IMG/VR virus record: IMGVR_UViG_3300020477_000120
Location: 1 to 25,003 of that record
DNA from: a virus
Lineage: Duplodnaviria > Caudoviricetes
DNA: 25,003 nt
Direction: 5' to 3' (one strand)
The notes under the pieces are model-generated. The model saw only the letters and a program-made list of their open reading frames with translations, ran no database searches and was not told the origin of the DNA. Made by a program: the position numbers and the translations under genes. Below, piece by piece: positions 10,617-20,020 of the stretch; the stretch's first letter is position 1, and each line of letters opens with the position of its first letter.

Positions 10617-13052
10617 CTATGAGAAAAAGTATTTAGATTGTAGCACACCATTTATATCAAGTGACCCTTGTGCTGGTGGATCACCTATGTTCGGTATAAC
10701 ATTATACACGTTATCGTGCAAAATGTCAAGTACACTCTCTGACGAGTACATCTTATGAAACGACTCTCGTATAGCTTCAGCCATACGTGGTGTATGATTA
10801 GCATGTACACCATACGAGTCATGAACAACAGCGAAATCACTGATGCCTTCTAGTATACACTGATTGATGGTCAATGTCAAGGCAGAAGCATCCATACTGT
10901 GGACAAAATTAGGACTCAACCCATTGGTTGCCCTTCGTTTATCGATACGATCTGTCTCTTCTAACACTGACGGTTTTATCAATACATTATCAATGTGGGT
11001 TGTCACCCTACGTCCCTTCATACTTTTGTAGACCTGATTGACTACAAAGTTCGTAGGTGTTTCCCATGTTATGGGTAGGTTACGAATAGACATTTCTCTG
11101 CCTATGTCTCGCAACCATGCCATAGCATCACGTGCGGCAACAACAACTTCGCCAATTGCATCCCATACATGTTGGGATAGGTACAAAGAAGCCTCGTAGA
11201 CTTGCTCATTAAAAGGATTGTGAGCACCTGCAAGTATGCGGTCGTGCATAGCCTCTTCCACATATTCACGGCACGAGTATCGTGTACCTCCGTATGGCAC
11301 AACCATGACTGGACGTTTGGTTATCTTCCGATCAATCCCGAAGTCAAGCCAAGCCTGTGCATAAGGTACCCCTATTATAGCATCTTCGTTCACCTTTGTC
11401 AAGACCACATCTGCTACCATCTGGTAGATGTCCTGTGGGACATCCTCTGGTGTCAGGTTTGTGGCTTTACCACCCACAGGGTCACGGAGCATAGCAGAAA
11501 AATGCTGTAATCCATTATTCGACCCATCCAAACAAATTGGTATTTGTGACATGTAGCCGAGACCCTCAACAACAAACTCAGCCCACTCGTTACACCACGC
11601 AAGAAAGGACCAAGGTTCGTCTGCTTTTGTCCACCATCTATAGTCAAGAGGTGACTTAGCCGACTCGCAAATCTCTTTCGTATGAGTGTGGACCCATTCG
11701 ACTCTTTCATTATAAGACACCTTATCATAACCAAAACAGTTGGCACCATGAACTGCAAAGTACATCTCTTGGTCATCTGTTTTGATAGGTAGTTTCTTAG
11801 CAAAATAGAGTAAAGACTTTGCATAGTCTGGACCCTGTGGTGTAAGAAACGAGTTTACTGTGTATTTGCGACCACGGAAGTCACACTGGTACACAAAATA
11901 AAGTGCAGGATACTTAGCAAACCTCTCTGCCATTTGCAATGTACGTGCCAACTGTATTCTCTTTGAGGTCATCTTGGCATTCAGATCATAAACGACAGTA
12001 GCCTTCTTTTTCCATTTGATAAACTTATCAAGTTCTTCCTCTGTCATAGTAGCTTTAGTCCCTTTGACTGGACTAGGTAGAACTTTGTAGTCCTCTCGTG
12101 GAGGTAAGTTGGCCCAGGATTCACCAGTATCCCAACATTCCTGGATTGTTTTTAACAGTCTTTCATTAACTTTCCATTGTGTCCTTTGTAAAGCGTTGAT
12201 AGCACCATATTCCAATGGCATACGATGGTTCATCATTTCCTCAAGATACTCTCTATTACGAGTCTTGATCATAGGAAATGGGTTCAACTTGTCACTGTGG
12301 TACCCTCCGTTGTACGGATTACTCCAGTCTTTCGGTGGTATCACACATGGGTAGAAGTACGGATGTACTGTCTCCCCCTCTTTGTTAAGCTGATCAATCC
12401 AATGTATTGTAGCATCATTAGCTTGCAAATACAAGATACGTTGCTTACGCTTGAACTGAACTGTCTTAACTTCCATGAGACCAGTATTTTGAATCAGTAT
12501 GTCAATCAACTTGGTACCCAAGTGCAACTTTTCACGTTTTGACCAAGGTTCATGATCCAACATTTCAACCTTGGACATCTGACGGATCAGATTGTACCTA
12601 CGATACACACGATTGGTTGTCTTACTGTTCACACGTTTCTTTAACAATCGAAACATGGTACTGGTATCACCAGAGTTTTGCCAAAGGTCAAACTTAAATT
12701 GATCCTCCAGTCCATTAGCCAATTTCATGGCAACTCTGGTAAATGGACTACGAGTAGACACACCATCAATAGTGTATTTAAGTGTAAGATACGCACACAC
12801 CTCTGGGTCAAGCAGCATCAGAGTCTGCACTGAGGTCTGGTGTTTTCCTGGCTTGCCACTCAAGGCTTCATCAAGAAAAGCATTGATCCCATCACAAACG
12901 ACATCCAACGCCTCTTTCATCAGAGTCACACCATATAGGGTGGTAGACTCACGGCTTTTATTCTTTGCATCACGAATGTTCTTGTGGTACCTTTCAATAC
13001 CAAGTGCATTCATGTCATGTTCTATCTGTTCCTGCTCAAGTTTTAGATTCAA
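10617..13052 (-). CDS. Single-subunit DNA-directed RNA polymerase (T7 gp1-like)
   Basis: 811 aa with DFRGRKY, DGSNNGLQH, RKITKRPVMVVPYG, PNFVHSMDAS and VHDSY. Confidence 0.98.
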   Translation of the reverse strand: MNLKLEQEQIEHDMNALGIERYHKNIRDAKNKSRESTTLYGVTLMKEALDVVCDGINAFLDEALSGKPGKHQTSVQTLMLLDPEVCAYLTLKYTIDGVSTRSPFTRVAMKLANGLEDQFKFDLWQNSGDTSTMFRLLKKRVNSKTTNRVYRRYNLIRQMSKVEMLDHEPWSKREKLHLGTKLIDILIQNTGLMEVKTVQFKRKQRILYLQANDATIHWIDQLNKEGETVHPYFYPCVIPPKDWSNPYNGGYHSDKLNPFPMIKTRNREYLEEMMNHRMPLEYGAINALQRTQWKVNERLLKTIQECWDTGESWANLPPREDYKVLPSPVKGTKATMTEEELDKFIKWKKKATVVYDLNAKMTSKRIQLARTLQMAERFAKYPALYFVYQCDFRGRKYTVNSFLTPQGPDYAKSLLYFAKKLPIKTDDQEMYFAVHGANCFGYDKVSYNERVEWVHTHTKEICESAKSPLDYRWWTKADEPWSFLAWCNEWAEFVVEGLGYMSQIPICLDGSNNGLQHFSAMLRDPVGGKATNLTPEDVPQDIYQMVADVVLTKVNEDAIIGVPYAQAWLDFGIDRKITKRPVMVVPYGGTRYSCREYVEEAMHDRILAGAHNPFNEQVYEASLYLSQHVWDAIGEVVVAARDAMAWLRDIGREMSIRNLPITWETPTNFVVNQVYKSMKGRRVTTHIDNVLIKPSVLEETDRIDKRRATNGLSPNFVHSMDASALTLTINQCILEGISDFAVVHDSYGVHANHTPRMAEAIRESFHKMYSSESVLDILHDNVYNVIPNIGDPPAQGSLDINGVLQSKYFFS
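10701..10729 (-). promoter_or_regulatory. Perfect-consensus sigma70 promoter within the 3' end of the RNAP gene, upstream of SSB
   Basis: TTGACA-N17-TATAAT (TTGACATTTTGCACGATAACGTGTATAAT). Confidence 0.75.
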
Positions 13053-13327
13053 TTAAGTTTAGATTTATCTACCTTGGAGTCAACCATGACTTCTAGGTTG
13101 TTTTCTATCAAAGCCATTCCCATGTGTATGAAGTTAAGACCTGCTTCAATCCTTTCACTTTCTGAAAGACTGGCATCACGCAATGCAGTATCCACCATCA
13201 TAATGGTCTTACCTAAAATATTTTGAGCTTCACGATCTAAAGTAAGGATCTCATTCTCTGTGAGTCCCATCTTATCACGTAAGTCATCTCTTGTCAAGTC
13301 TGGCATCTGGTTCAGGTTCATCATCAT
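13049..13327 (-). CDS. Hypothetical helical protein immediately upstream of RNAP
   Basis: ORF track gives 13049..13363; the probable start is 13327 (after GAGG) or slightly downstream. Its stop overlaps the RNAP TTG start. Confidence 0.65.
   Translation of the reverse strand: MMMNLNQMPDLTRDDLRDKMGLTENEILTLDREAQNILGKTIMMVDTALRDASLSESERIEAGLNFIHMGMALIENNLEVMVDSKVDKSKLN
13269..13297 (-). promoter_or_regulatory. Sigma70-type promoter upstream of RNAP
   Basis: TTGACA-N17-TAAGAT with an extended -10 TG. Confidence 0.55.
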
Positions 13328-13442
13328 CTTCGTCCTCTGTGCATACATTGCGGTCATACACAAGACCCTTGTGTTTTGGGTTACGTGTGTACTTGGTTCT
13401 AACCCTGTGGGTCTGCGACCCTCTGTTCTTTATACCTTTCAT
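13284..13442 (-). CDS. Small basic/acidic bipartite peptide with an ArfA-like KYxRxxKHK motif
   Basis: Not in the ORF track (52 aa): MKGIKNRGSQTHRVRTKYTRNPKHKGLVYDRNVCTEDEDDDEPEPDARLDKR, with RBS GAGG upstream of the ATG. Confidence 0.55.
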   Translation of the reverse strand: MKGIKNRGSQTHRVRTKYTRNPKHKGLVYDRNVCTEDEDDDEPEPDARLDKR

Positions 13443-13617
13443 GGTTTAACCTCTTGAGATATAGTTCATGTTTAAGAATTAACGTGTCAACCTTAGATTG
13501 AATCACACGTTGACTCCATGTCAACTCATGAAGTTTAAAAGAAGCATGTATGCTAAATGTAAGCCATAGTATAGCACATACTGTAACAAATGTCAAGACC
13601 ACCTTTGTAATGTCCAT
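13399..13617 (-). CDS. Small putative membrane protein
   Basis: ATG lies 4 nt after the tRNA-Trp CCA; one hydrophobic segment (VVLTFVTVCAILWLTF). No clear RBS, and it contains a promoter. Confidence 0.4.
   Translation of the reverse strand: MDITKVVLTFVTVCAILWLTFSIHASFKLHELTWSQRVIQSKVDTLILKHELYLKRLNHERYKEQRVADPQG
13568..13596 (-). promoter_or_regulatory. Sigma70 promoter downstream of tRNA-Trp
   Basis: TTGACA-N17-TATACT with an extended -10 TG. Confidence 0.7.
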
Positions 13618-13620
13618 GTT

Positions 13621-13694
13621 TGGCACCTCATATAAGAATCGAACTCATGTCTACTGGTTTGGAATCAGTCATGTTACCACTACACCAATGAGGT
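13621..13694 (-). tRNA. trnW: tRNA-Trp (CCA)
   Basis: ACCTCAT TG GTGT AGTGGTA ACAT G ACTGA TTCCAAA CCAGT AGAC ATGAG TTCGATT CTTAT ATGAGGT G CCA: a full cloverleaf with G73 and encoded CCA, 74 nt. Confidence 0.93.
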
Positions 13695-13697
13695 GTG

Positions 13698-13872
13698 TAT
13701 AGTACACCATGCAGTCAAGTCCTGGGTTTGCAATCACCCTGTACGCACCTGCACATAATCAACCTACCTGCTGAATAGGTAGCCAACCCTACTGTCCAAG
13801 AAGATAGCGAACTTCTTTAGACATCAGCAACCAAGTCCACCATAGTCCCTCAGTCGAGTTAGGTGTACTATA
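13698..13872 (-). ncRNA. Unknown structured RNA 'A' (~175 nt) between the tRNAs
   Basis: Perfect 11-bp closing stem TATAGTACACC/GGTGTACTATA; internal hairpins (TGTCT.AAGAAG/CTTCTTGGACA, CTACCT/AGGTAG, GGGT/ACCC) whose G-U pairs favour the - strand; no long ORF; ends 3 nt before tRNA-Trp. Confidence 0.6.
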
Positions 13873-13878
13873 TTCTAG

Positions 13879-13959
13879 TGGAGACAGGAACCTCATAATC
13901 TAACGATTTAAGGAATTCGTAGCTATTGAGTGTTTACAATAGTATCTAGCCTGTCTCCA
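13879..13959 (-). ncRNA. Unknown structured RNA 'B' (~81 nt) directly after tRNA-Tyr
   Basis: Perfect 10-bp closing stem TGGAGACAGG/CCTGTCTCCA enclosing the hairpins CTATTG/CAATAG and ACGA/TCGT. Confidence 0.6.
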
Positions 13960-13963
13960 TGTT

Positions 13964-14049
13964 TGGTGGGTGAGGTAGGATTTTAACCTACAAGTGTGTG
14001 CACACGCCTGATTTACAGTCAGGTTCCTTTTACATTTGGATACTCACCC
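13964..14049 (-). tRNA. trnY: tRNA-Tyr (GTA), class II long variable arm
   Basis: GGGTGAG TA TCC AAATGTAAAA GGA A CCTGA CTGTAAA TCAGG CGTGTGCACACACTT GTAGG TTAAAAT CCTAC CTCACCC A CCA; A73 and encoded CCA, 86 nt. Confidence 0.9.
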
Positions 14050-14055
14050 GTGTTC

Positions 14056-14202
14056 TTACTCTTCCAGATCTTCAAAAAACACACCACTCTGGAAGTGTTC
14101 AAAAAAATCTTCAGCCACTATTTCTTCTTCATCCTCAGATTCGTACACAGCTTCATAAACTGCATCTAAGAATGACCAAAGAGGATCATTACGCTCAGTC
14201 AT
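14056..14202 (-). CDS. Very acidic 48-aa peptide (DNA-mimic candidate)
   Basis: Not in the ORF track. ATGA overlap with the upstream gene; MTERNDPLWSFLDAVYEAVYESEDEEEIVAEDFFEHFQSGVFFEDLEE; stop lies 6 nt before tRNA-Tyr. Confidence 0.7.
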   Translation of the reverse strand: MTERNDPLWSFLDAVYEAVYESEDEEEIVAEDFFEHFQSGVFFEDLEE

Positions 14203-14423
14203 TCGGTGACAATCTCCACTTCTGTAACGGTACTCGTGACATACGCTTTCTCTGCATGTGTCTCGTGTACAATACGAAACTCAGCACCTGTAGTGTCCAT
14301 AACCATCTTACGTATGGCATTTATCAGATGAACTTCATTCATAGACTCTATGTCAATGAATTTGTTCTTTGATTTACTCAGGTACTCAATACGTGGTTTC
14401 GGTTGTTTCTTTAAGTTTACCAT
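14199..14423 (-). CDS. Small phage hypothetical protein
   Basis: 74 aa with RBS GGAG and the pattern YLSKSKNKFIDIESMNEVHLINAIRK. Confidence 0.75.
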   Translation of the reverse strand: MVNLKKQPKPRIEYLSKSKNKFIDIESMNEVHLINAIRKMVMDTTGAEFRIVHETHAEKAYVTSTVTEVEIVTE

Positions 14424-14442
14424 ATCAAATCTCCATTGTCAA
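14414..14442 (-). promoter_or_regulatory. Sigma70-type promoter upstream of the tRNA/ncRNA cluster
   Basis: TTGACA-N17-TAAACT with an extended -10 TG. Confidence 0.6.
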
Positions 14443-14649
14443 GTCATCAAAATCACATTCAATCCAAACATGTGCACCACATGATAAAGGTTTTTCAGGT
14501 GAGTACACAACCTTTGAAGGACCATTAATCTCTACTTCGTAGCAATAATGGTTTGCCTTGTATGTTTTTACTGTCAGAGGTGGATGTTTACGATCCTCTT
14601 TTTTATTTGCACGTATTACGTGTTGGTTTACGTGGATTTGTGCTTTCAT
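14425..14649 (-). CDS. Conserved small phage hypothetical protein
   Basis: IHVNQHVIRAN...PPLTVKT...EVEINGPSKVVYSPEKPLSCGAHVWIE, a pattern I recognise from aquatic phages; start MKAQ at 14649. Confidence 0.8.
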   Translation of the reverse strand: MKAQIHVNQHVIRANKKEDRKHPPLTVKTYKANHYCYEVEINGPSKVVYSPEKPLSCGAHVWIECDFDDLTMEI

Positions 14650-14650
14650 C

Positions 14651-14845
14651 CTACGGCTCCACAACAAAGATTACTTCTGCAATAGCAGAGTCAAAGAAAC
14701 TATACTCGTCATTGAGTATAGATGATATTACATTGTCCAAGGTATTGCTGTCAATACCATCAAAGTGTAAAGATGCAACTTCATCTCTACCACCATCAGG
14801 ACCATCAAAATCCTGGATACTTACTTTAACATTATGACAGTACAT
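14651..14845 (-). CDS. Small acidic hypothetical protein
   Basis: ORF track gives 14651..14887; the likely start is MYCHN at 14845 after CAGGAG, because the upstream part is a stem-loop. Confidence 0.7.
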   Translation of the reverse strand: MYCHNVKVSIQDFDGPDGGRDEVASLHFDGIDSNTLDNVISSILNDEYSFFDSAIAEVIFVVEP

Positions 14846-14863
14846 ATATACTCCTGAATGAAT

Positions 14864-14922
14864 GGGGCACCTTGACATGCAACGCACGGAGCATAATGCG
14901 TTTGTCCTGCATGTAGTGCCCC
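14864..14922 (-). other. Intergenic interrupted stem-loop (possible RNase III site)
   Basis: Nested inverted repeats GGGGCAC/GTGCCCC, ACATGCA/TGCATGT and AACGCA/TGCGTT. Confidence 0.6.
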
Positions 14923-14926
14923 GTGG

Positions 14927-15169
14927 TTACCTTATTTGCTCTGCATGAAACACTATTTCATGGACATAAACATCACCCATATCATAACTTCCATAAGTAT
15001 ATGGACTCTGAACAGCACAGAACCATCTAGCATGTGGGTTTTCAGCCTCTTTGCTAGGTTTCTGGTACTTTTTAAGTATCTTCCATGTCCATGATCCATC
15101 ATAGGATCTCCATACTTCGTATGGGTTATCTATGGGTCTCGTTTTTCCACACAGGTTTTTTTCGGTCAT
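14927..15169 (-). CDS. Conserved Trp/Tyr-rich phage hypothetical protein
   Basis: 80 aa with RBS AGGAG; NPYEVW...WTWKILKKYQ...ARWFCAVQSPYTYGSYDMGDVY. Confidence 0.85.
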   Translation of the reverse strand: MTEKNLCGKTRPIDNPYEVWRSYDGSWTWKILKKYQKPSKEAENPHARWFCAVQSPYTYGSYDMGDVYVHEIVFHAEQIR

Positions 15170-15229
15170 TGTATGCTCCTAATAGTTTACGTACCAAGTG
15201 AGCCAACCTTTGTGCTCACGTTTTACTAT

Positions 15230-15258
15230 ATTATAGCATGTCTCACTGCAAGTGTCAA
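15230..15258 (-). promoter_or_regulatory. Early sigma70 promoter (perfect consensus)
   Basis: TTGACA-N17-TATAAT with an extended -10 TG. Confidence 0.85.
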
Positions 15259-15268
15259 CAGTACCTTT

Positions 15269-15320
15269 GCGAGTGTTAAAGAACCTTGAGACATCAAAGG
15301 TTTTACCTTTGAACACTCGC
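15269..15320 (-). other. Intergenic interrupted stem-loop (possible RNase III site)
   Basis: Nested inverted repeats GCGAGTGTT/AACACTCGC, AAAG/CTTT and AACCTT/AAGGTT. Confidence 0.6.
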
Positions 15321-15336
15321 TTGCAATAAGTGCATA

Positions 15337-15969
15337 TCATACCAGACACTCCTGATGAAGTGCAGACACATCAGCACCACCTGTGAAATAGCAATCCTGC
15401 TTTTCACCTATAAGGTTACACCAGTTGATCCACATGTTGACAGAACCACCTGCCTCATCCACTATGTCAAGGTATTGGTATACCTTGCGTGATTTTGTGT
15501 CCTCATTGTTACCTGAGGTTTGCAGGAATGCAGGTGTACCTTTGGACGCATCAAGCTCTGGCATGTAACGCTTGATGTTATGAACGTCCATACAACCTGC
15601 CTTGCCAGTAAGTAGCTGAACTACAAAGGCAGACTTAGGTATACCTAACCCTGGTACCTCTAAGAACAACATGATAAGATCATGATCAGCATCAGCCTTC
15701 TTGGCTTTGATGATGGACATAGCCCTAGCATATAGGTCATCACGATGCTTACGTACATAGGTAAGCCCTGTACGTTTGTTGCCCCAGATCCAAGATGACT
15801 TGAGACCTCTTTTTCTCCATTCACGCATGAACTTAGGCAAGAGAAAAGTCTGGACTCTAATACTAGCGAATACAAACGCTATAAGTTGCTCCATGTGCTT
15901 TGCACTGGTTTGACCAAAGGTACGTGTGTACCCATTATGCTGTAAATAATGTTTTCTAGTTGCTTCCAT
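15337..15969 (-). CDS. HhH-GPD superfamily DNA glycosylase-like protein
   Basis: 210 aa with the helix-hairpin-helix LFLEVPGLGIPKSAFVVQLL followed by GCMDVHN, placing Lys and Asp at OGG/EndoIII-type catalytic positions; RBS AGGAG. Confidence 0.65.
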   Translation of the reverse strand: MEATRKHYLQHNGYTRTFGQTSAKHMEQLIAFVFASIRVQTFLLPKFMREWRKRGLKSSWIWGNKRTGLTYVRKHRDDLYARAMSIIKAKKADADHDLIMLFLEVPGLGIPKSAFVVQLLTGKAGCMDVHNIKRYMPELDASKGTPAFLQTSGNNEDTKSRKVYQYLDIVDEAGGSVNMWINWCNLIGEKQDCYFTGGADVSALHQECLV

Positions 15970-16001
15970 AAGGATGCTCCTGTATGATTGCGATTGACTA
16001 A

Positions 16002-16030
16002 AGTATAGCAGGACTTGATGGACTTGTCAA
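16002..16030 (-). promoter_or_regulatory. Early sigma70 promoter
   Basis: TTGACA-N17-TATACT with an extended -10 TG. Confidence 0.85.
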
Positions 16031-16047
16031 GCCCTGCATGGTTCCTG

Positions 16048-16341
16048 CTATCCGAAGATACGTGCAAGGTATCCGAACAAATCTTTCATCTTCCTTCCAG
16101 GAAGGTTAGACTCCTTCACAAACTGACGCATGACCTTCATCTGGTGCATGAATTCAGGCCGAGGTTGACCTAAGTCCCACAGTATGATATCTTCACCTGT
16201 GGACTTGATCCGACCAAGGAATACACCTTTGCGTACAACCTTGTCACCATAACCTTCACGTATCCACTGCCCAGGATGAAAATTCTGACCTGCGGTTACG
16301 TTTTGGCCTTGCAGACCTTCGATTGCGTTTAAATACATCAT
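16048..16341 (-). CDS. Early phage hypothetical protein
   Basis: 97 aa containing FHPGQWI...KGVFLG. Confidence 0.75.
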   Translation of the reverse strand: MMYLNAIEGLQGQNVTAGQNFHPGQWIREGYGDKVVRKGVFLGRIKSTGEDIILWDLGQPRPEFMHQMKVMRQFVKESNLPGRKMKDLFGYLARIFG

Positions 16342-16380
16342 ATTGACCTTTTATTTGTCAATGATACATGGTTTTAGTTT

Positions 16381-16418
16381 AACACTACGCCAGCCACCAT
16401 GCAGACTAGCGTAGTGTT
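16381..16418 (-). other. 15-bp leader stem-loop
   Basis: AACACTACGCTAGTC/GGCTGGCGTAGTGTT, fully paired on the - strand with two G-U pairs. Confidence 0.65.
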
Positions 16419-16431
16419 TGTGATGCCATAT

Positions 16432-16460
16432 ATTATAGCATCTTAAAATCGGTTTGTCAA
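16432..16460 (-). promoter_or_regulatory. Early sigma70 promoter (perfect consensus)
   Basis: TTGACA-N17-TATAAT with an extended -10 TG; overlaps the end of the upstream gene. Confidence 0.85.
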
Positions 16461-16703
16461 GTCATCAGGGTCCATACCAACCTCACCCCCATGCTTGGCT
16501 ATAACACTGTTTACAACAGTGCGAGGAACAAAAGTATACACAGTACGTGTAGGTCTGTCACGATCCTCTGCGTACTCCATAATCAAGTCCTCTTTTTCCG
16601 AAGGAAACCCAATCTCTACGGAATTCTCATCACAATATGCCAAAGGCATATAATCTTGATCGATGACGGACATGTGAAATCCGTCTTCACAATATACCCA
16701 CAT
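16443..16703 (-). CDS. Conserved phage hypothetical protein
   Basis: 86 aa with RBS AGGAG; CEDGFHMSV...EIGFPS...YAED...TVY..VP..VV..VIAKHGG. Confidence 0.85.
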   Translation of the reverse strand: MWVYCEDGFHMSVIDQDYMPLAYCDENSVEIGFPSEKEDLIMEYAEDRDRPTRTVYTFVPRTVVNSVIAKHGGEVGMDPDDLTNRF

Positions 16704-16909
16704 TATCTCATGCTCCTAAATGAAGTGTCAAGGTTTTTCTTTGTATTTTCAATACAAGTTTTAAGCTTATTGATTTTATCCTTTACCAAGGATAACTCTT
16801 TTTTATCGCCAGTGAGTGCTACGTTATTCCGTACATGGTTGTACTTGTCCAGTTGTACCATGTGTCGGGCTAATGCAGCTTTTGTTCTGACTCGCTTATT
16901 TTCATTCAT
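16703..16909 (-). CDS. Small basic coiled-coil hypothetical protein
   Basis: 68 aa with RBS AGGAG; TAATG coupling to the next gene. Confidence 0.7.
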   Translation of the reverse strand: MNENKRVRTKAALARHMVQLDKYNHVRNNVALTGDKKELSLVKDKINKLKTCIENTKKNLDTSFRSMR

Positions 16910-16937
16910 AATAACATGCTCCTATTTTGAATGTCAA
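16908..16937 (-). promoter_or_regulatory. Probable early sigma70 promoter
   Basis: TTGACA-N18-TATTAT with an extended -10 TG; the -10 overlaps the start codon of 16703..16909. Confidence 0.5.
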
Positions 16938-16938
16938 G

Positions 16939-17205
16939 TTAAAAAGGACACGTAGTGTCATCAGGTTCGTCAAGATCCCATAATGGATCACAACACATAC
17001 CAGTCATCAAGAACTCTCGCTCGGACGCATTCAAGGTCGGGAAAGCATCTTGAATCAATGCACCACTATTATAGTCCATTAGATTCTGTTTGTCAACTAC
17101 CATCTCATGGTACTTCCCTGAAGTACACGTACCACTGAGGCATACAGAGTCATCTGTGATCATGTGGATGTGTACGTTGGGACCATGTAAGTATTTTTGA
17201 AACAT
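16939..17205 (-). CDS. Conserved phage hypothetical protein
   Basis: Start MFQKY (17205) after CAGGAG; contains GALIQDAFPTLNASEREFLMTG. Confidence 0.8.
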   Translation of the reverse strand: MFQKYLHGPNVHIHMITDDSVCLSGTCTSGKYHEMVVDKQNLMDYNSGALIQDAFPTLNASEREFLMTGMCCDPLWDLDEPDDTTCPF

Positions 17206-17231
17206 GTTAGCTCCTGTGTTCGTTTGCCTAT

Positions 17232-17260
17232 ATAATAGCACATCATTTGCTGATTGTCAA
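17232..17260 (-). promoter_or_regulatory. Early sigma70 promoter
   Basis: TTGACA-N17-TATTAT with an extended -10 TG. Confidence 0.8.
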
Positions 17261-17422
17261 GTCCACCAGATCACGTATCATACGTTGGTTACGTGTGATG
17301 CAAAACAAATCAATGTTGTTCTCACTTGCCAACGTAATACCACTCACTATGTGACCTTTCATGAACAAATTAAAAGATGGTTGAAGATCATCACCTTTAT
17401 CCCATGATTTTAAACACCGCAT
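17243..17422 (-). CDS. Small early hypothetical protein
   Basis: Not in the ORF track (59 aa): MRCLKSWDKGDDLQPSFNLFMKGHIVSGITLASENNIDLFCITRNQRMIRDLVDLTISK, with RBS ATAGGAG and its own promoter. Confidence 0.75.
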   Translation of the reverse strand: MRCLKSWDKGDDLQPSFNLFMKGHIVSGITLASENNIDLFCITRNQRMIRDLVDLTISK

Positions 17423-17448
17423 GATTGCTCCTATGTGTGTTTGTCTAC

Positions 17449-17478
17449 ATTATAGCATGTGTCTTGATCGTTTGTCAA
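17449..17478 (-). promoter_or_regulatory. Early sigma70 promoter
   Basis: TTGACA-N18-TATAAT with an extended -10 TG. Confidence 0.8.
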
Positions 17479-17550
17479 GTCACTGGTTTACTTGTGTAAC
17501 ACAAGTACCTATGGATCACTCAAGATCGCTTGTGTACCTGTGTTACTTTC

Positions 17551-17579
17551 AGTATACCATGTGATTATACAATTGTCAA
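17551..17579 (-). promoter_or_regulatory. Early sigma70 promoter
   Basis: TTGACA-N17-TATACT with an extended -10 TG. Confidence 0.8.
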
Positions 17580-17581
17580 GA

Positions 17582-17758
17582 CTACCTTGCCCATGACCAT
17601 TTAGCAATTGTAAATTGCTCACGTTTCCTGAAGGCACCTGTGGACCTACGTTTAGGCCCGTCTGGACATACGTCTATACGCTTTGGCCCGTCTGTGCTCA
17701 CTGGCACAAGACGATCAGGATTGATACCTTGGGCCAATAGTTTCTCTCGCTGTGTCAT
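17582..17758 (-). CDS. Small basic protein, probable first early gene
   Basis: Start MTQREK (17758) after ATAGGAG; 58 aa with an internal DGPKR duplication. Confidence 0.7.
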   Translation of the reverse strand: MTQREKLLAQGINPDRLVPVSTDGPKRIDVCPDGPKRRSTGAFRKREQFTIAKWSWAR

Positions 17759-17851
17759 ACATGCTCCTATGTTTGTGTGTTTGCGTTTGTGTAACGTGCA
17801 CTCAAGCATCTGATCTGTCTGATTGCTGTGCCGTTGCTCACGTTGGCTTCA

Positions 17852-17879
17852 AGTATACAGGTTGAAACGCAAAAGTCAA
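17852..17879 (-). promoter_or_regulatory. Probable first early promoter
   Basis: TTGACT-N16-TATACT. Confidence 0.5.
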
Positions 17880-18346
17880 ATCGAGGGTCTCTCTGGCACC
17901 GAAGGTGCTGTGCGTACACGAGGGCAGCCGTGATCACGTTGCTAACACACGCAACGACCTTGGTCGTCACACGGCAACACACGTTACGTTGGTCACCTTG
18001 GTTTAACTACGTTAAAAAAACAGATGCAATTGGATATATAGCTAATCAAACCAATGAATACCTATATACCCAATCAATCCTCGTGTGTACACAGGTATGC
18101 AAGCGTCATACCAGCGTTTACCTGCGTATACATAGGCATGACTCGTGCATGGGCACACACGTACACACAGGAATGCAAAAGTCGTGCCACAAGTTCACGT
18201 GGGACACCCCCGATGGGGGACATTTCCATTCCCATCGATTGCTAACCATCTCATATTTTTTTACCAAATTATGACTAACAGGACATTAGATACATACATT
18301 AGTATACCATAGTCCACTTTAGTAGTACCACTACACTATATACTAA
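17880..18346. other. Non-coding genome-end / probable direct terminal repeat region
   Basis: Lies between terL and the first early promoter, as at the T7 concatemer junction. No - strand ORF with an RBS; contains the CCCCC-GAT-GGGGG palindrome (18207-18219) and AATTTGGTAAAAAAATATGAG on the - strand (about 18250-18270). Confidence 0.65.
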
Positions 18347-20020
18347 CTATATACTAAACCATCTAGGTTGTACTTCAGTAAACTTATTTACACTCATGGC
18401 ATTCTGCATGAATATCTCAAGTTCCTTATCTAGTAAATAATCTTTCCTTGTCTTCATCTCACGATCTACATCAGCAGACATTTGTTCTACCCAGTATGCT
18501 ACTGCCATAGACAACACATCCAGTCTGTCGTCATGTACTAAAGCCCCACGTTCTTTAGTTACCCTAGTCATCTGGTAAGCTAACATGTACTTAGGTTGCT
18601 TTTCTGGTGGGTAGTGTTGTACTGAACTATAGTCTTTCTCAAGTGCTTTCCTGTCGATCACTAGCTTATGCTGATTCATCACAGGTTCTAAGACATCAAT
18701 AATCCTTTTCTCTTTCTGGATGTTGTGTCTGACTTCTTCTATCGTCACAGGGTGAACCTTAGTCAACACAGGTTTAAGCAACTCAGTAAACATACCATCA
18801 CCGAAGTTAGACTCCACAAGTACATAGTTTACCTTATGCTGCCTTGCAATCATGCTTATGGTCTTCAGTACACGTTCTCCATAACCACCCTCTATGCCCC
18901 CAAAGTCTACAACATAAAGATAACCATTCAGCATCTTAACTACAGCGTATGCTGTTTCGTCTTGCCCACGACCACTAGGGTCAATTGCTAACAGTGACCC
19001 TGTGTAATCAATGTAATCTCCAACAGTATCCAAGGGCTTATAATAAAAGTCACCAGGAAGCCCGACATTAGGAATGTCAACAATCTTATCCTTGTCTCTT
19101 CCCCAAATAATCTTCTCTGGTCCCTTTTCACTATCTACATCCATTACAATCAAATCCTCAAGTTTAAGTGGGTATCTATTGGCATCACTTAAACTCGTAT
19201 CTAACATAAACTGTAGGCTGAACCCTGATCTACCATAGGACAACTCACGTTCCAATAAATCATGGTCATTAAAACGTCTAGGGTCAGTAGGTTGTCCTGT
19301 GATGGTAGGATCAGTGTCCACCTGTCTAACTAGCGTATCCGCCAGTCTACCATTGTACTTAATAGTATCCTTTGGGTATCTAGCGGGCCATATTTTAACT
19401 TTGTATCCACGTTCAGGTAATACTTCATACAAACTCATTTCAGTCTGTGGTGTACCTAAATACACAACACGACCATCAGGTTTTAAGACAGCATCAAATT
19501 CTTTGACAGCCTCAGAGATCTTGTCTCTCATAGTTTGTGTCATGGAGTTATTAGGTATCTCTATGTCATCTGCAATAATCAAGTCTGCTCGACTACCAGC
19601 CAACTGACCAGTGATACCAGCAGACTTCACAGAGGGACTGTGAGATGCTTTGGCAGGACCAACGTCAAAACTAATCTTAGATTGACGCTGGTTGTCTCTA
19701 GGAATGAGATGTTGAAGAAGCGGCATCTCCTGAATAAGCCGCATGGTAAAGGTGCTGAAGTCATCTGCTCTTATCTTACTTGCAGATACCACCAGTATTT
19801 TAACTTCAGGGTTGAGATATAATTGGTGACATGCGTAAGCAGAGGTAATGTAAGATTTCCCTGCACCACGAAATGCCTCTATGACAATACGTTTTTCATC
19901 TGACTGTAGATATTCAGCCATATCATACTGTACTGGAGTAGGCTCTGGAAGGTTTAAATGGGACCACACGACAAAAAGAAAGTTACGGAAGTCTCTCAGG
20001 TCATCTACTATCGTTTCCAT
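18347..20020 (-). CDS. terL: Terminase large subunit (T7 gp19-like)
   Basis: EAFRGAGKS (Walker A), IIADDIE (Walker B), IDPSGRGQDE, ESNFGDGM and HDDRLD. Confidence 0.97.
   Translation of the reverse strand: METIVDDLRDFRNFLFVVWSHLNLPEPTPVQYDMAEYLQSDEKRIVIEAFRGAGKSYITSAYACHQLYLNPEVKILVVSASKIRADDFSTFTMRLIQEMPLLQHLIPRDNQRQSKISFDVGPAKASHSPSVKSAGITGQLAGSRADLIIADDIEIPNNSMTQTMRDKISEAVKEFDAVLKPDGRVVYLGTPQTEMSLYEVLPERGYKVKIWPARYPKDTIKYNGRLADTLVRQVDTDPTITGQPTDPRRFNDHDLLERELSYGRSGFSLQFMLDTSLSDANRYPLKLEDLIVMDVDSEKGPEKIIWGRDKDKIVDIPNVGLPGDFYYKPLDTVGDYIDYTGSLLAIDPSGRGQDETAYAVVKMLNGYLYVVDFGGIEGGYGERVLKTISMIARQHKVNYVLVESNFGDGMFTELLKPVLTKVHPVTIEEVRHNIQKEKRIIDVLEPVMNQHKLVIDRKALEKDYSSVQHYPPEKQPKYMLAYQMTRVTKERGALVHDDRLDVLSMAVAYWVEQMSADVDREMKTRKDYLLDKELEIFMQNAMSVNKFTEVQPRWFSI

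Follow-up and report, generated by a model that had tools for sequence, protein, structure and literature searches.

The tRNAs that lie beside phage stable RNAs are now known to defeat tRNA-cutting defences. The stable RNAs themselves, which include T4 rnaC/rnaD (species 1 and 2) and T5 RNA I, III, IV, RNA1-3, RNA2H, and RNAX, are folded non-coding molecules of 70–720 nt, annotated inside tRNA clusters at a spacing of a few bases from the neighbouring tRNA genes. Their role is given as unknown (PMC3014915); PMC12685909 is a further source on these RNAs. Several other systems are relevant. ROOL and GOLLD RNAs adjoin phage tRNA islands and multimerize via kissing loops, some of which are palindromic (10.1101/2024.12.08.627333); theta (minimal HDV-like) ribozymes often start ≤5 nt from the 3' end of a phage tRNA (PMC10879173); and a tRNA-Tyr from the tRNA-rich region of T5 rescues phage from retron-Eco7 (PMC11555353).

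Here, we describe RNA A, a predicted 175-nt non-coding RNA gene in the early region of an uncultured marine T7-like phage. The window, meaning the whole 25,003-nt stretch of DNA that was analysed, has PHROG matches to RNA polymerase, ssDNA-binding protein, endonuclease, amidase, primase/helicase, DNA polymerase, exonuclease, and terminase, with a polymerase only 36–40% alike to those of the nearest named phages. A close relative (G001) has a complete genome of 45,075 bases with terminal repeats, and the 20 runs that contain the region are labelled marine, aquatic, or estuarine. The T7-type RNA polymerase gene (10617..13052, − strand) places a tRNA array in the early region. Along the − strand, this array consists of tRNA-Tyr(GUA) (13964..14049), a separate 85-nt three-way-junction cassette termed RNA B (13876..13960), RNA A (13698..13872), and tRNA-Trp(CCA) (13621..13694), with both tRNAs identified by ARAGORN and Rfam. 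No ORF of ≥60 aa overlaps RNA A, and none of the 11 phage early proteins has a Pfam match.

As a non-coding folded RNA gene within a few bases of tRNA genes, RNA A is of the T4/T5 kind, and by analogy a role akin to that of T4 rnaC/rnaD and T5 RNA I-IV is our best reading. Unlike those RNAs, it is carried by a ~45 kb T7-like phage and trades places with a tRNA gene. Searches with the covariance models of Rfam 15 (including GOLLD, ROOL, tmRNA, RNase P, SRP, 6S, Y RNA, riboswitches, and ribozymes) yielded no match to RNA A; at E ≤ 1 the window returned two tRNAs and one chance match elsewhere, and six homologous loci at E ≤ 5 returned nothing over RNA A. Kinship with T5 RNAIV was considered and rejected: the RNA A model scored RNAIV at 11.3 bits (E 0.036), but the reciprocal test failed (the RNAIV model gave 9.9 bits, E 1.2, on the best RNA A copy), and the hairpin letters common to both are variable in RNAIV relatives. 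None of the other T4/T5 stable RNAs exceeded hairpin noise with the RNA A model. Like RNA A, GOLLD and ROOL are phage-borne, near tRNA islands, of unknown function, and furnished with loops able to kiss; many GOLLD RNAs exceed 800 nt, however, and RNA A is far smaller and lacks a match to their Rfam models. We found no description of RNA A in the literature searched, and the searched portions of a catalogue of 10,006 viral candidate RNAs (PMC10690425) contain no mention matching it. We regard RNA A as a new family within a class of RNAs that is already known but still lacks an explanation.

RNA A is not a tRNA by any measure we applied: ARAGORN and Rfam are negative, a T-loop is found in none of the eight distinct copies, and there is neither a cloverleaf nor a CCA end. 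A Cys-like loop is present, closed as 8 nt by a U-A or U-G pair (four copies each), but its register is wrong for a Cys anticodon mimic, a candidate we rejected. Separately, 12 letters of the anticodon loop of the tRNA-Cys at locus L015 (450-523, −) recur, in a different register, in the hairpin that ends RNA A arm P7. Some resemblance to the group I intron P4 (P/Q) was also observed, with UGCUG...UCAGCAG pairing in the same order (P-like in six of eight copies, Q-like in all eight). In contrast to a group I intron, RNA A has no P7 of that type and no P6 after Q, and it is not inserted in a gene.

Pattern and protein scans recovered 13 RNA A loci beyond the window, which together with the window collapse to eight distinct sequences, 64–99% alike. 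Further scans returned little else. Blastn searches of the region and the most divergent RNA A copy against 50,697 phage records, and of RNA A against plasmids, gave tRNA or chance matches only. All six matches to a P7 hairpin pattern were chance; two relaxed gap patterns found 31 and 11 stretches, four of each being already-known RNA A copies, and nothing further. Nine of 38 stretches from a metagenome scan are true RNA A, neither of two stretches from a genome scan matches the RNA A model, and the covariance model found no new members in 51 and 16 sources, including 23 more distant phage loci. The range of the family as found here is narrow, comprising eight distinct copies in uncultured phages.

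Across the eight copies, a nested model of 45 base pairs is largely maintained: 96.3% of 355 cells pair. This figure is to be read knowing that the copies scored are those on which the model was built, and that relatedness alone can beat the shuffle control. Sliding the partner by 1–3 columns lowers pairing to 34–46%. Seven of the 45 pairs change on both sides, three of them in outer P1 and from only two near-identical sequences (L014/L016); none falls in P2, P4, or P6. Covariation is thin, and the support for the predicted fold is moderate. Invariant positions number 99 of 175 (58 of the 90 paired and 41 of the 85 unpaired under the nested model), and the invariant unpaired bases would fit tertiary contacts or a binding surface. 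The preliminary description had proposed a functional structured RNA, and the retained pairings and invariant model-unpaired positions support this; RNA A is very probably a real structured RNA gene. Between two clades, RNA A is 79% alike over 146 nt and three protein genes are 64–69% alike, a higher RNA identity that may stem from recent transfer rather than selection.

The predicted fold (all coordinates on the − strand) begins with P1, an 11-bp stem whose 5' strand (13862..13872) pairs with 13708-13698. P1 would stack on a long arm, P7, and close a three-way junction with P2 and P7. Its inner four pairs are invariant, its outer part differs in clade 2, and its 3' strand (13698..13708) ends 3 nt ahead of tRNA-Trp. 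The second branch comprises UAA and the P2 5' strand (13852..13861), which pair with 13764-13756 in a segment made up of invariant GGUA, P2 3' strand, and UUA (13756..13768); in L014/L016, one base shorter on either side, P2 is preserved by this matched loss. Atop P2, invariant GAGG (13848..13851) and invariant GGUA (13768-13765) could form a bulged-G (loop E-like) motif, with GAG plus GGUA fitting its core. This branch is predicted to continue into P4, made of UGCUGA (13824..13829) and invariant UCAGCA (13769..13774), which would close the junction of hairpins P5 and P6. P5 (13793..13823) has two compensatory pairs and the loop UUCGCUAU at 13811-13804. P6 (GGGU/ACCY, 13777..13789) has a 3' side that doubles as the 5' strand of an alternative hairpin discussed below. 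The P7 arm (13709..13754) consists of a covarying base helix with a C-G/U-A swap, an irregular middle, and a terminal hairpin with a G-C/A-U swap beneath its invariant loop GAUUGCAA (13735-13728). The variable G/U-rich linker (13830..13847) has no common helix. A two-tier G-quadruplex in the linker was tried as a candidate and is weak. A terminator-like match at 13782-13764 was also set aside, having a poor U tail. By eye, we noted a candidate loop-loop contact between P5 and P7 with two G-C pairs and a U-U mismatch.

These results bear out only part of the preliminary description. Every helix it named can be drawn, including the closing stem (13872-13862/13708-13698), the long hairpin (13823-13793), and the hairpin GGGU-GAUUGCAA-ACCC (13739-13724), all on the − strand. 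Absent from it are two helices, P2 (13857-13852/13764-13759) and P7 (from 13754/13709), and the tRNA genes on either side. The 9-nt near-direct repeats that it reported in the two arms are attributable to chance: 140 of 200 shuffles contain such a repeat, and only one of the eight sequences has both of its copies. A micro-ORF, MVDLVADV, which starts in the linker, is likewise a chance feature confined to one copy of eight.

The preliminary description also drew a hairpin, CUACCU/AGGUAG, whose loop pairs with GCUGA to form a pseudoknot. CUACC/GGUAG never varies, but the sixth pair is broken in two of eight copies, and the hairpin cannot form together with GGGU/ACCY or with the final pair of P2, its two competitors. 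The complementarity of GCUGA (13828-13824) and UCAGC (13774-13770) is present and kept in all eight copies; a C-G pair becomes U-G once, and nowhere do both sides change. Within one sequence this match is not special: because a 5-nt complement to the UCAGC loop occurs in 863 of 2,000 shuffles, it becomes meaningful only with homologues. The pseudoknotted fold is compatible with the alignment. In the nested fold, which is also the RNAalifold consensus, UGCUGA/UCAGCA is instead the ordinary helix P4 that closes P5 and P6. Base 13777 (U or C) pairs with G13789 in all eight copies and with A13769 in six, base 13852 is U or C opposite G13764, and the leftover GAG and GGUA fit a bulged-G core; for these reasons we favour the nested fold. 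Constrained folding does not separate the two, as modelled: the CUACC/GGUAG hairpin lies 0.5 to 9.5 kcal/mol below the nested model even before pseudoknot pairs are added, and both constrained folds lie above the unconstrained minimum energy. Overall, the interior of RNA A probably adopts the nested fold, with the pseudoknot less likely and a switch between the two improbable.

The folding energy of RNA A (MFE -66.9 kcal/mol, z -4.32) was reached by none of 200 shuffles, and homologues retain the pairings. Among the eight copies, z ranges from -1.1 to -4.4. Much of this energy signal comes from the closing stem, because z shrinks to between +0.1 and -3.2 without it; cores lacking the stem reach z < -2 in two of eight copies.

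The main new result on RNA A is its behaviour as a cassette: relatives of the phage have acquired it, dropped it, or put a tRNA gene in its place. We chose seven relatives by polymerase similarity, five of which span the array; L004 and L006 start inside it and are not counted. Among the five, L003 has RNA A, L007 has a 39-nt stub, and L001, L002, and L005 lack it, with tRNA-Tyr joined to tRNA-Trp by a 2-nt spacing. RNA A varies in presence among near-identical phages (polymerases 96–98% alike), and two DNA runs contain both the joined and the RNA A-bearing forms. The L007 stub retains the 11-bp closing stem with the interior gone, and its sequence is what a deletion from one ATGGTG hexamer (13843) to another (13710) would leave. 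In clade 2, whose terminase gene is 67% alike to that of the window, a single site, flanked in each case by the same pair of early genes, is occupied by RNA A (L105, L106), by tRNA-Tyr (L103), or by nothing (L104); because L105 and L106 belonged to the query, no frequency can be read from their share. These two clade-2 copies have no tRNA nearby. The use of one site by RNA A and a tRNA may reflect a recombination hotspot rather than a shared job. Across 26 loci, array members are individually present or absent, but their sequence along the array stays the same (Ala, Tyr, Cys, RNA B or C, A, D, E, Gly, His, Asp, Trp). The downstream neighbour of RNA A varies among tRNA-Trp, tRNA-Gly, RNA D, RNA E, and two different ORFs.

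One reading of this mobility is that RNA A is selfish or nearly neutral and that recombination between the tRNA genes on either side has spread it. Four of the five close relatives are without RNA A or have only a stub, and its halves look shuffled between copies, as would be expected of such a module. Pair-keeping changes and invariant unpaired bases argue against near-neutrality, as do the lack of an adjoining mobility gene and the occurrence in two clades in different contexts, and we consider this the least probable of the readings examined here.

The stub bears on another reading, in which the closing stem is an RNase III-type stalk that would mark the early transcript for processing or punctuate it, with the interior as a passenger. 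The T7 early transcript has RNase III sites. L007 keeps the stem with the interior gone, the clade-2 stem is longer and of different sequence, and much of the RNA A z-score is due to the stem, all of which is consistent with a stalk. The invariant part of RNA A, however, is the interior and not the stem. The tRNA-Tyr and tRNA-Trp genes lie 2 nt apart in three relatives, so no stalk is needed there; a pattern scan for such stalks gave 16 hits (two RNA A, one stub, and 13 unrelated) and no other cargo; and the stub is explicable by the hexamer deletion. A pure processing signal is thus quite improbable.

Other folded modules occur in the same array. RNA B has a 10-bp closing stem ending in CUA and two hairpins (window 13876-13960, −; z -4.7); it is confined to the window among the 26 loci compared and is also found in one DNA run. 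RNA C (L015 342-449, −) is a folded module of ~108 nt between tRNA-Cys and RNA A, without an Rfam match. RNA D (L085 1288-1426, −) is a multibranch module of ~139 nt with a G-C closing stem, and its 3' end appears as a loose end beside tRNA-Trp in RNA run X15. RNA E (L085 1199-1284, −; L066 1347-1432, −) is a tRNA-like module of 86 nt that has a Trp-type anticodon-like loop but no T arm, and whose long closing stem ends in CUA. An atypical second tRNA-Trp(CCA) is present in L066 (1275-1346, −) and L085 (1054-1125, −), missed by ARAGORN and scored at 23.9 bits in Rfam. Clade-2 phages have stem-loop modules upstream of the RNA A/tRNA-Tyr site (L105 4760-4925; L103 3590-3676; L104 7034-7138), one of which is confined to L105/L106.

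The position of RNA A next to tRNAs also raises the possibility of a new self-cleaving pseudoknot ribozyme that would remove the 3' trailer from the tRNA upstream of it, a role proposed for theta ribozymes. RNA A starts 3 nt past the tRNA-Tyr CCA in L066, L085, and L097, and more than 5 nt from any tRNA 3' end in the other copies (the window, L003, L015, L105, and L106). A pseudoknot fold is compatible with the alignment, and the core is highly invariant. On the other hand, L003, L105, and L106 have no upstream tRNA at all, and neighbouring tRNAs occur without RNA A. The conserved core is distant from both ends, which are locked together in P1, whereas in theta ribozymes the 5' end is not paired with the 3' end in this way. 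A descriptor of the HDV-like nested double pseudoknot with a catalytic C in J4/2, home-made and lacking a positive control, matched none of the eight copies. Using consensus motifs (hammerhead CUGANGA and GAAA, twister UAA..GC, and the group I and RNase P motifs), we found GAAA in none of the eight copies, CUGANGA in two, the twister pattern in none, the group I R and S elements in none, and RNase P CR I plus CR V forming P4 in none. The earlier suggestion of a ribozyme-like RNA thus finds no backing in Rfam, in the core motifs of known classes, or in the distribution of neighbouring tRNAs, and we regard it as very unlikely.

Expression of RNA A likely relies on the host. The nearest upstream candidate promoter for the array is a sigma-70-type element with an extended -10 (14414..14442, −), a 10/12 consensus match 570 bases upstream of RNA A. 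Consensus matches of 11–12/12 number ten on the − strand within 13000–18400. RNA A is likely transcribed by the host polymerase along with the tRNAs and then likely cut from the early transcript as a stable RNA by host tRNA-processing nucleases, with RNase P cleavage at the next tRNA expected to create its 3' end. Three of four RNA runs contain the Tyr-Trp joined form lacking RNA A, and one has a single contig over 13621-13754 that continues past tRNA-Trp. This contig may represent precursor or DNA, as assembled contigs show neither ends nor level. As a separate observation, the ten near-perfect sigma-70 matches in window 13200-17600 (−) amount to nearly one per early gene, unlike a single early promoter cluster.

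What RNA A does may be approached from its distribution. Its ends are locked together, its interior is conserved, its downstream neighbour changes freely, and tRNAs do without it, so we read it as a stand-alone RNA acting in trans rather than a cis-regulator or tRNA-trimming ribozyme. Its patchy presence in near-identical phages, its early position, and its exchange with tRNA-Tyr suggest accessory cargo aimed at particular host strains. Given in addition that tRNA-Tyr is the antidote to retron-Eco7 in T5 (PMC11555353), these features point toward counter-defence: that system has a similar accessory array, and tRNA-Tyr is the neighbour of RNA A or its substitute. RNA A differs in not being a tRNA and, lacking a T-loop and CCA end, would not be a plain tRNA decoy. 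Our tentative preference is therefore that RNA A is a conserved early-array cassette, likely host-transcribed and nuclease-released, which most likely would act in trans as counter-defence cargo, either binding a host factor or serving as a decoy for it. Attempts to identify the host, binding partner, or defence system yielded none, which weighs against this preference. A protein scaffold, as the preliminary description suggested, is possible and close to the same reading.

The host factor might also have nothing to do with defence. RNA A could tilt expression toward the phage by sponging or regulating a host protein that binds RNA generally (CsrA type, ProQ, ribosomal protein, or RNA polymerase). 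All eight copies have one or two GGA motifs in the unstructured linker, and the early position and many invariant unpaired bases would suit such a role. Yet the GGA motifs lie outside hairpin loops in a linker that is G-rich, where the four-GG pattern reaches shuffle p values of just 0.04–0.10 in six copies and fails in two; RNA A does not match 6S, Csr/Rsm, or other Rfam families; and the patchy presence better fits a strain-specific target. We judge a general sponge to be quite unlikely.

The terminal loop of P7 raises the further prospect of an RNA-only oligomer, a small counterpart of ROOL/GOLLD in which at least two copies kiss via a self-complementary loop. GAUUGCAA contains the 6-nt palindrome UUGCAA, such a palindrome being present in 4.6% of random 8-mers, and the loop is invariant in all eight copies; ROOL and GOLLD (10.1101/2024.12.08.627333) set a precedent near phage tRNA islands. 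The evidence against is that no palindrome-to-palindrome change, and hence no covariation, is seen among the eight copies, that UUGCAA provides two G-C pairs only, that no Rfam model matches, and that the same letters occur in the clade's tRNA-Cys anticodon loop, so that other origins are possible. As an explanation in itself, oligomerization is unlikely, but it is compatible with the counter-defence cargo reading and does not exclude it. A bolder proposal combines the two: the array would be a plug-in set of RNA-only counter-defence genes, made up of tRNAs and of folded RNAs that no catalogue lists, five or more in number (A to E), exchanged one for one, with RNA A as a tertiary-folded, possibly kissing-dimer decoy of a host immune nuclease or sensor. 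We consider this possible but speculative. If true, it would supply a function for the long-unexplained stable RNAs of phage tRNA clusters, together with a natural presence/absence panel. As a new compact family, exchanged with tRNA-Tyr at one site and variable among near-identical phages, RNA A has a size that suits structure probing, structure determination, and tests against defence systems in a laboratory strain.

Some minor observations were made on the surrounding sequences. T5 RNAIV (L147 6839-6941, −) folds into a cloverleaf with a four-way junction; its anticodon-like loop of 7 nt does not vary, and 11 of its 46 pairs covary in seven T5-like phages. The phage tRNA-Trp (window 13650-13670, −) and tRNA-Cys (L015 450-523, −) have an A-C mismatch at the anticodon-loop base. 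In one clade-2 phage, a tyrosine integrase (L103 8168-9154) precedes the RNA polymerase, where the window has none. Among the late genes, the window encodes a short Na+/phosphate cotransporter-family protein (PF02690; 20429-20887, −) with thousands of relatives.
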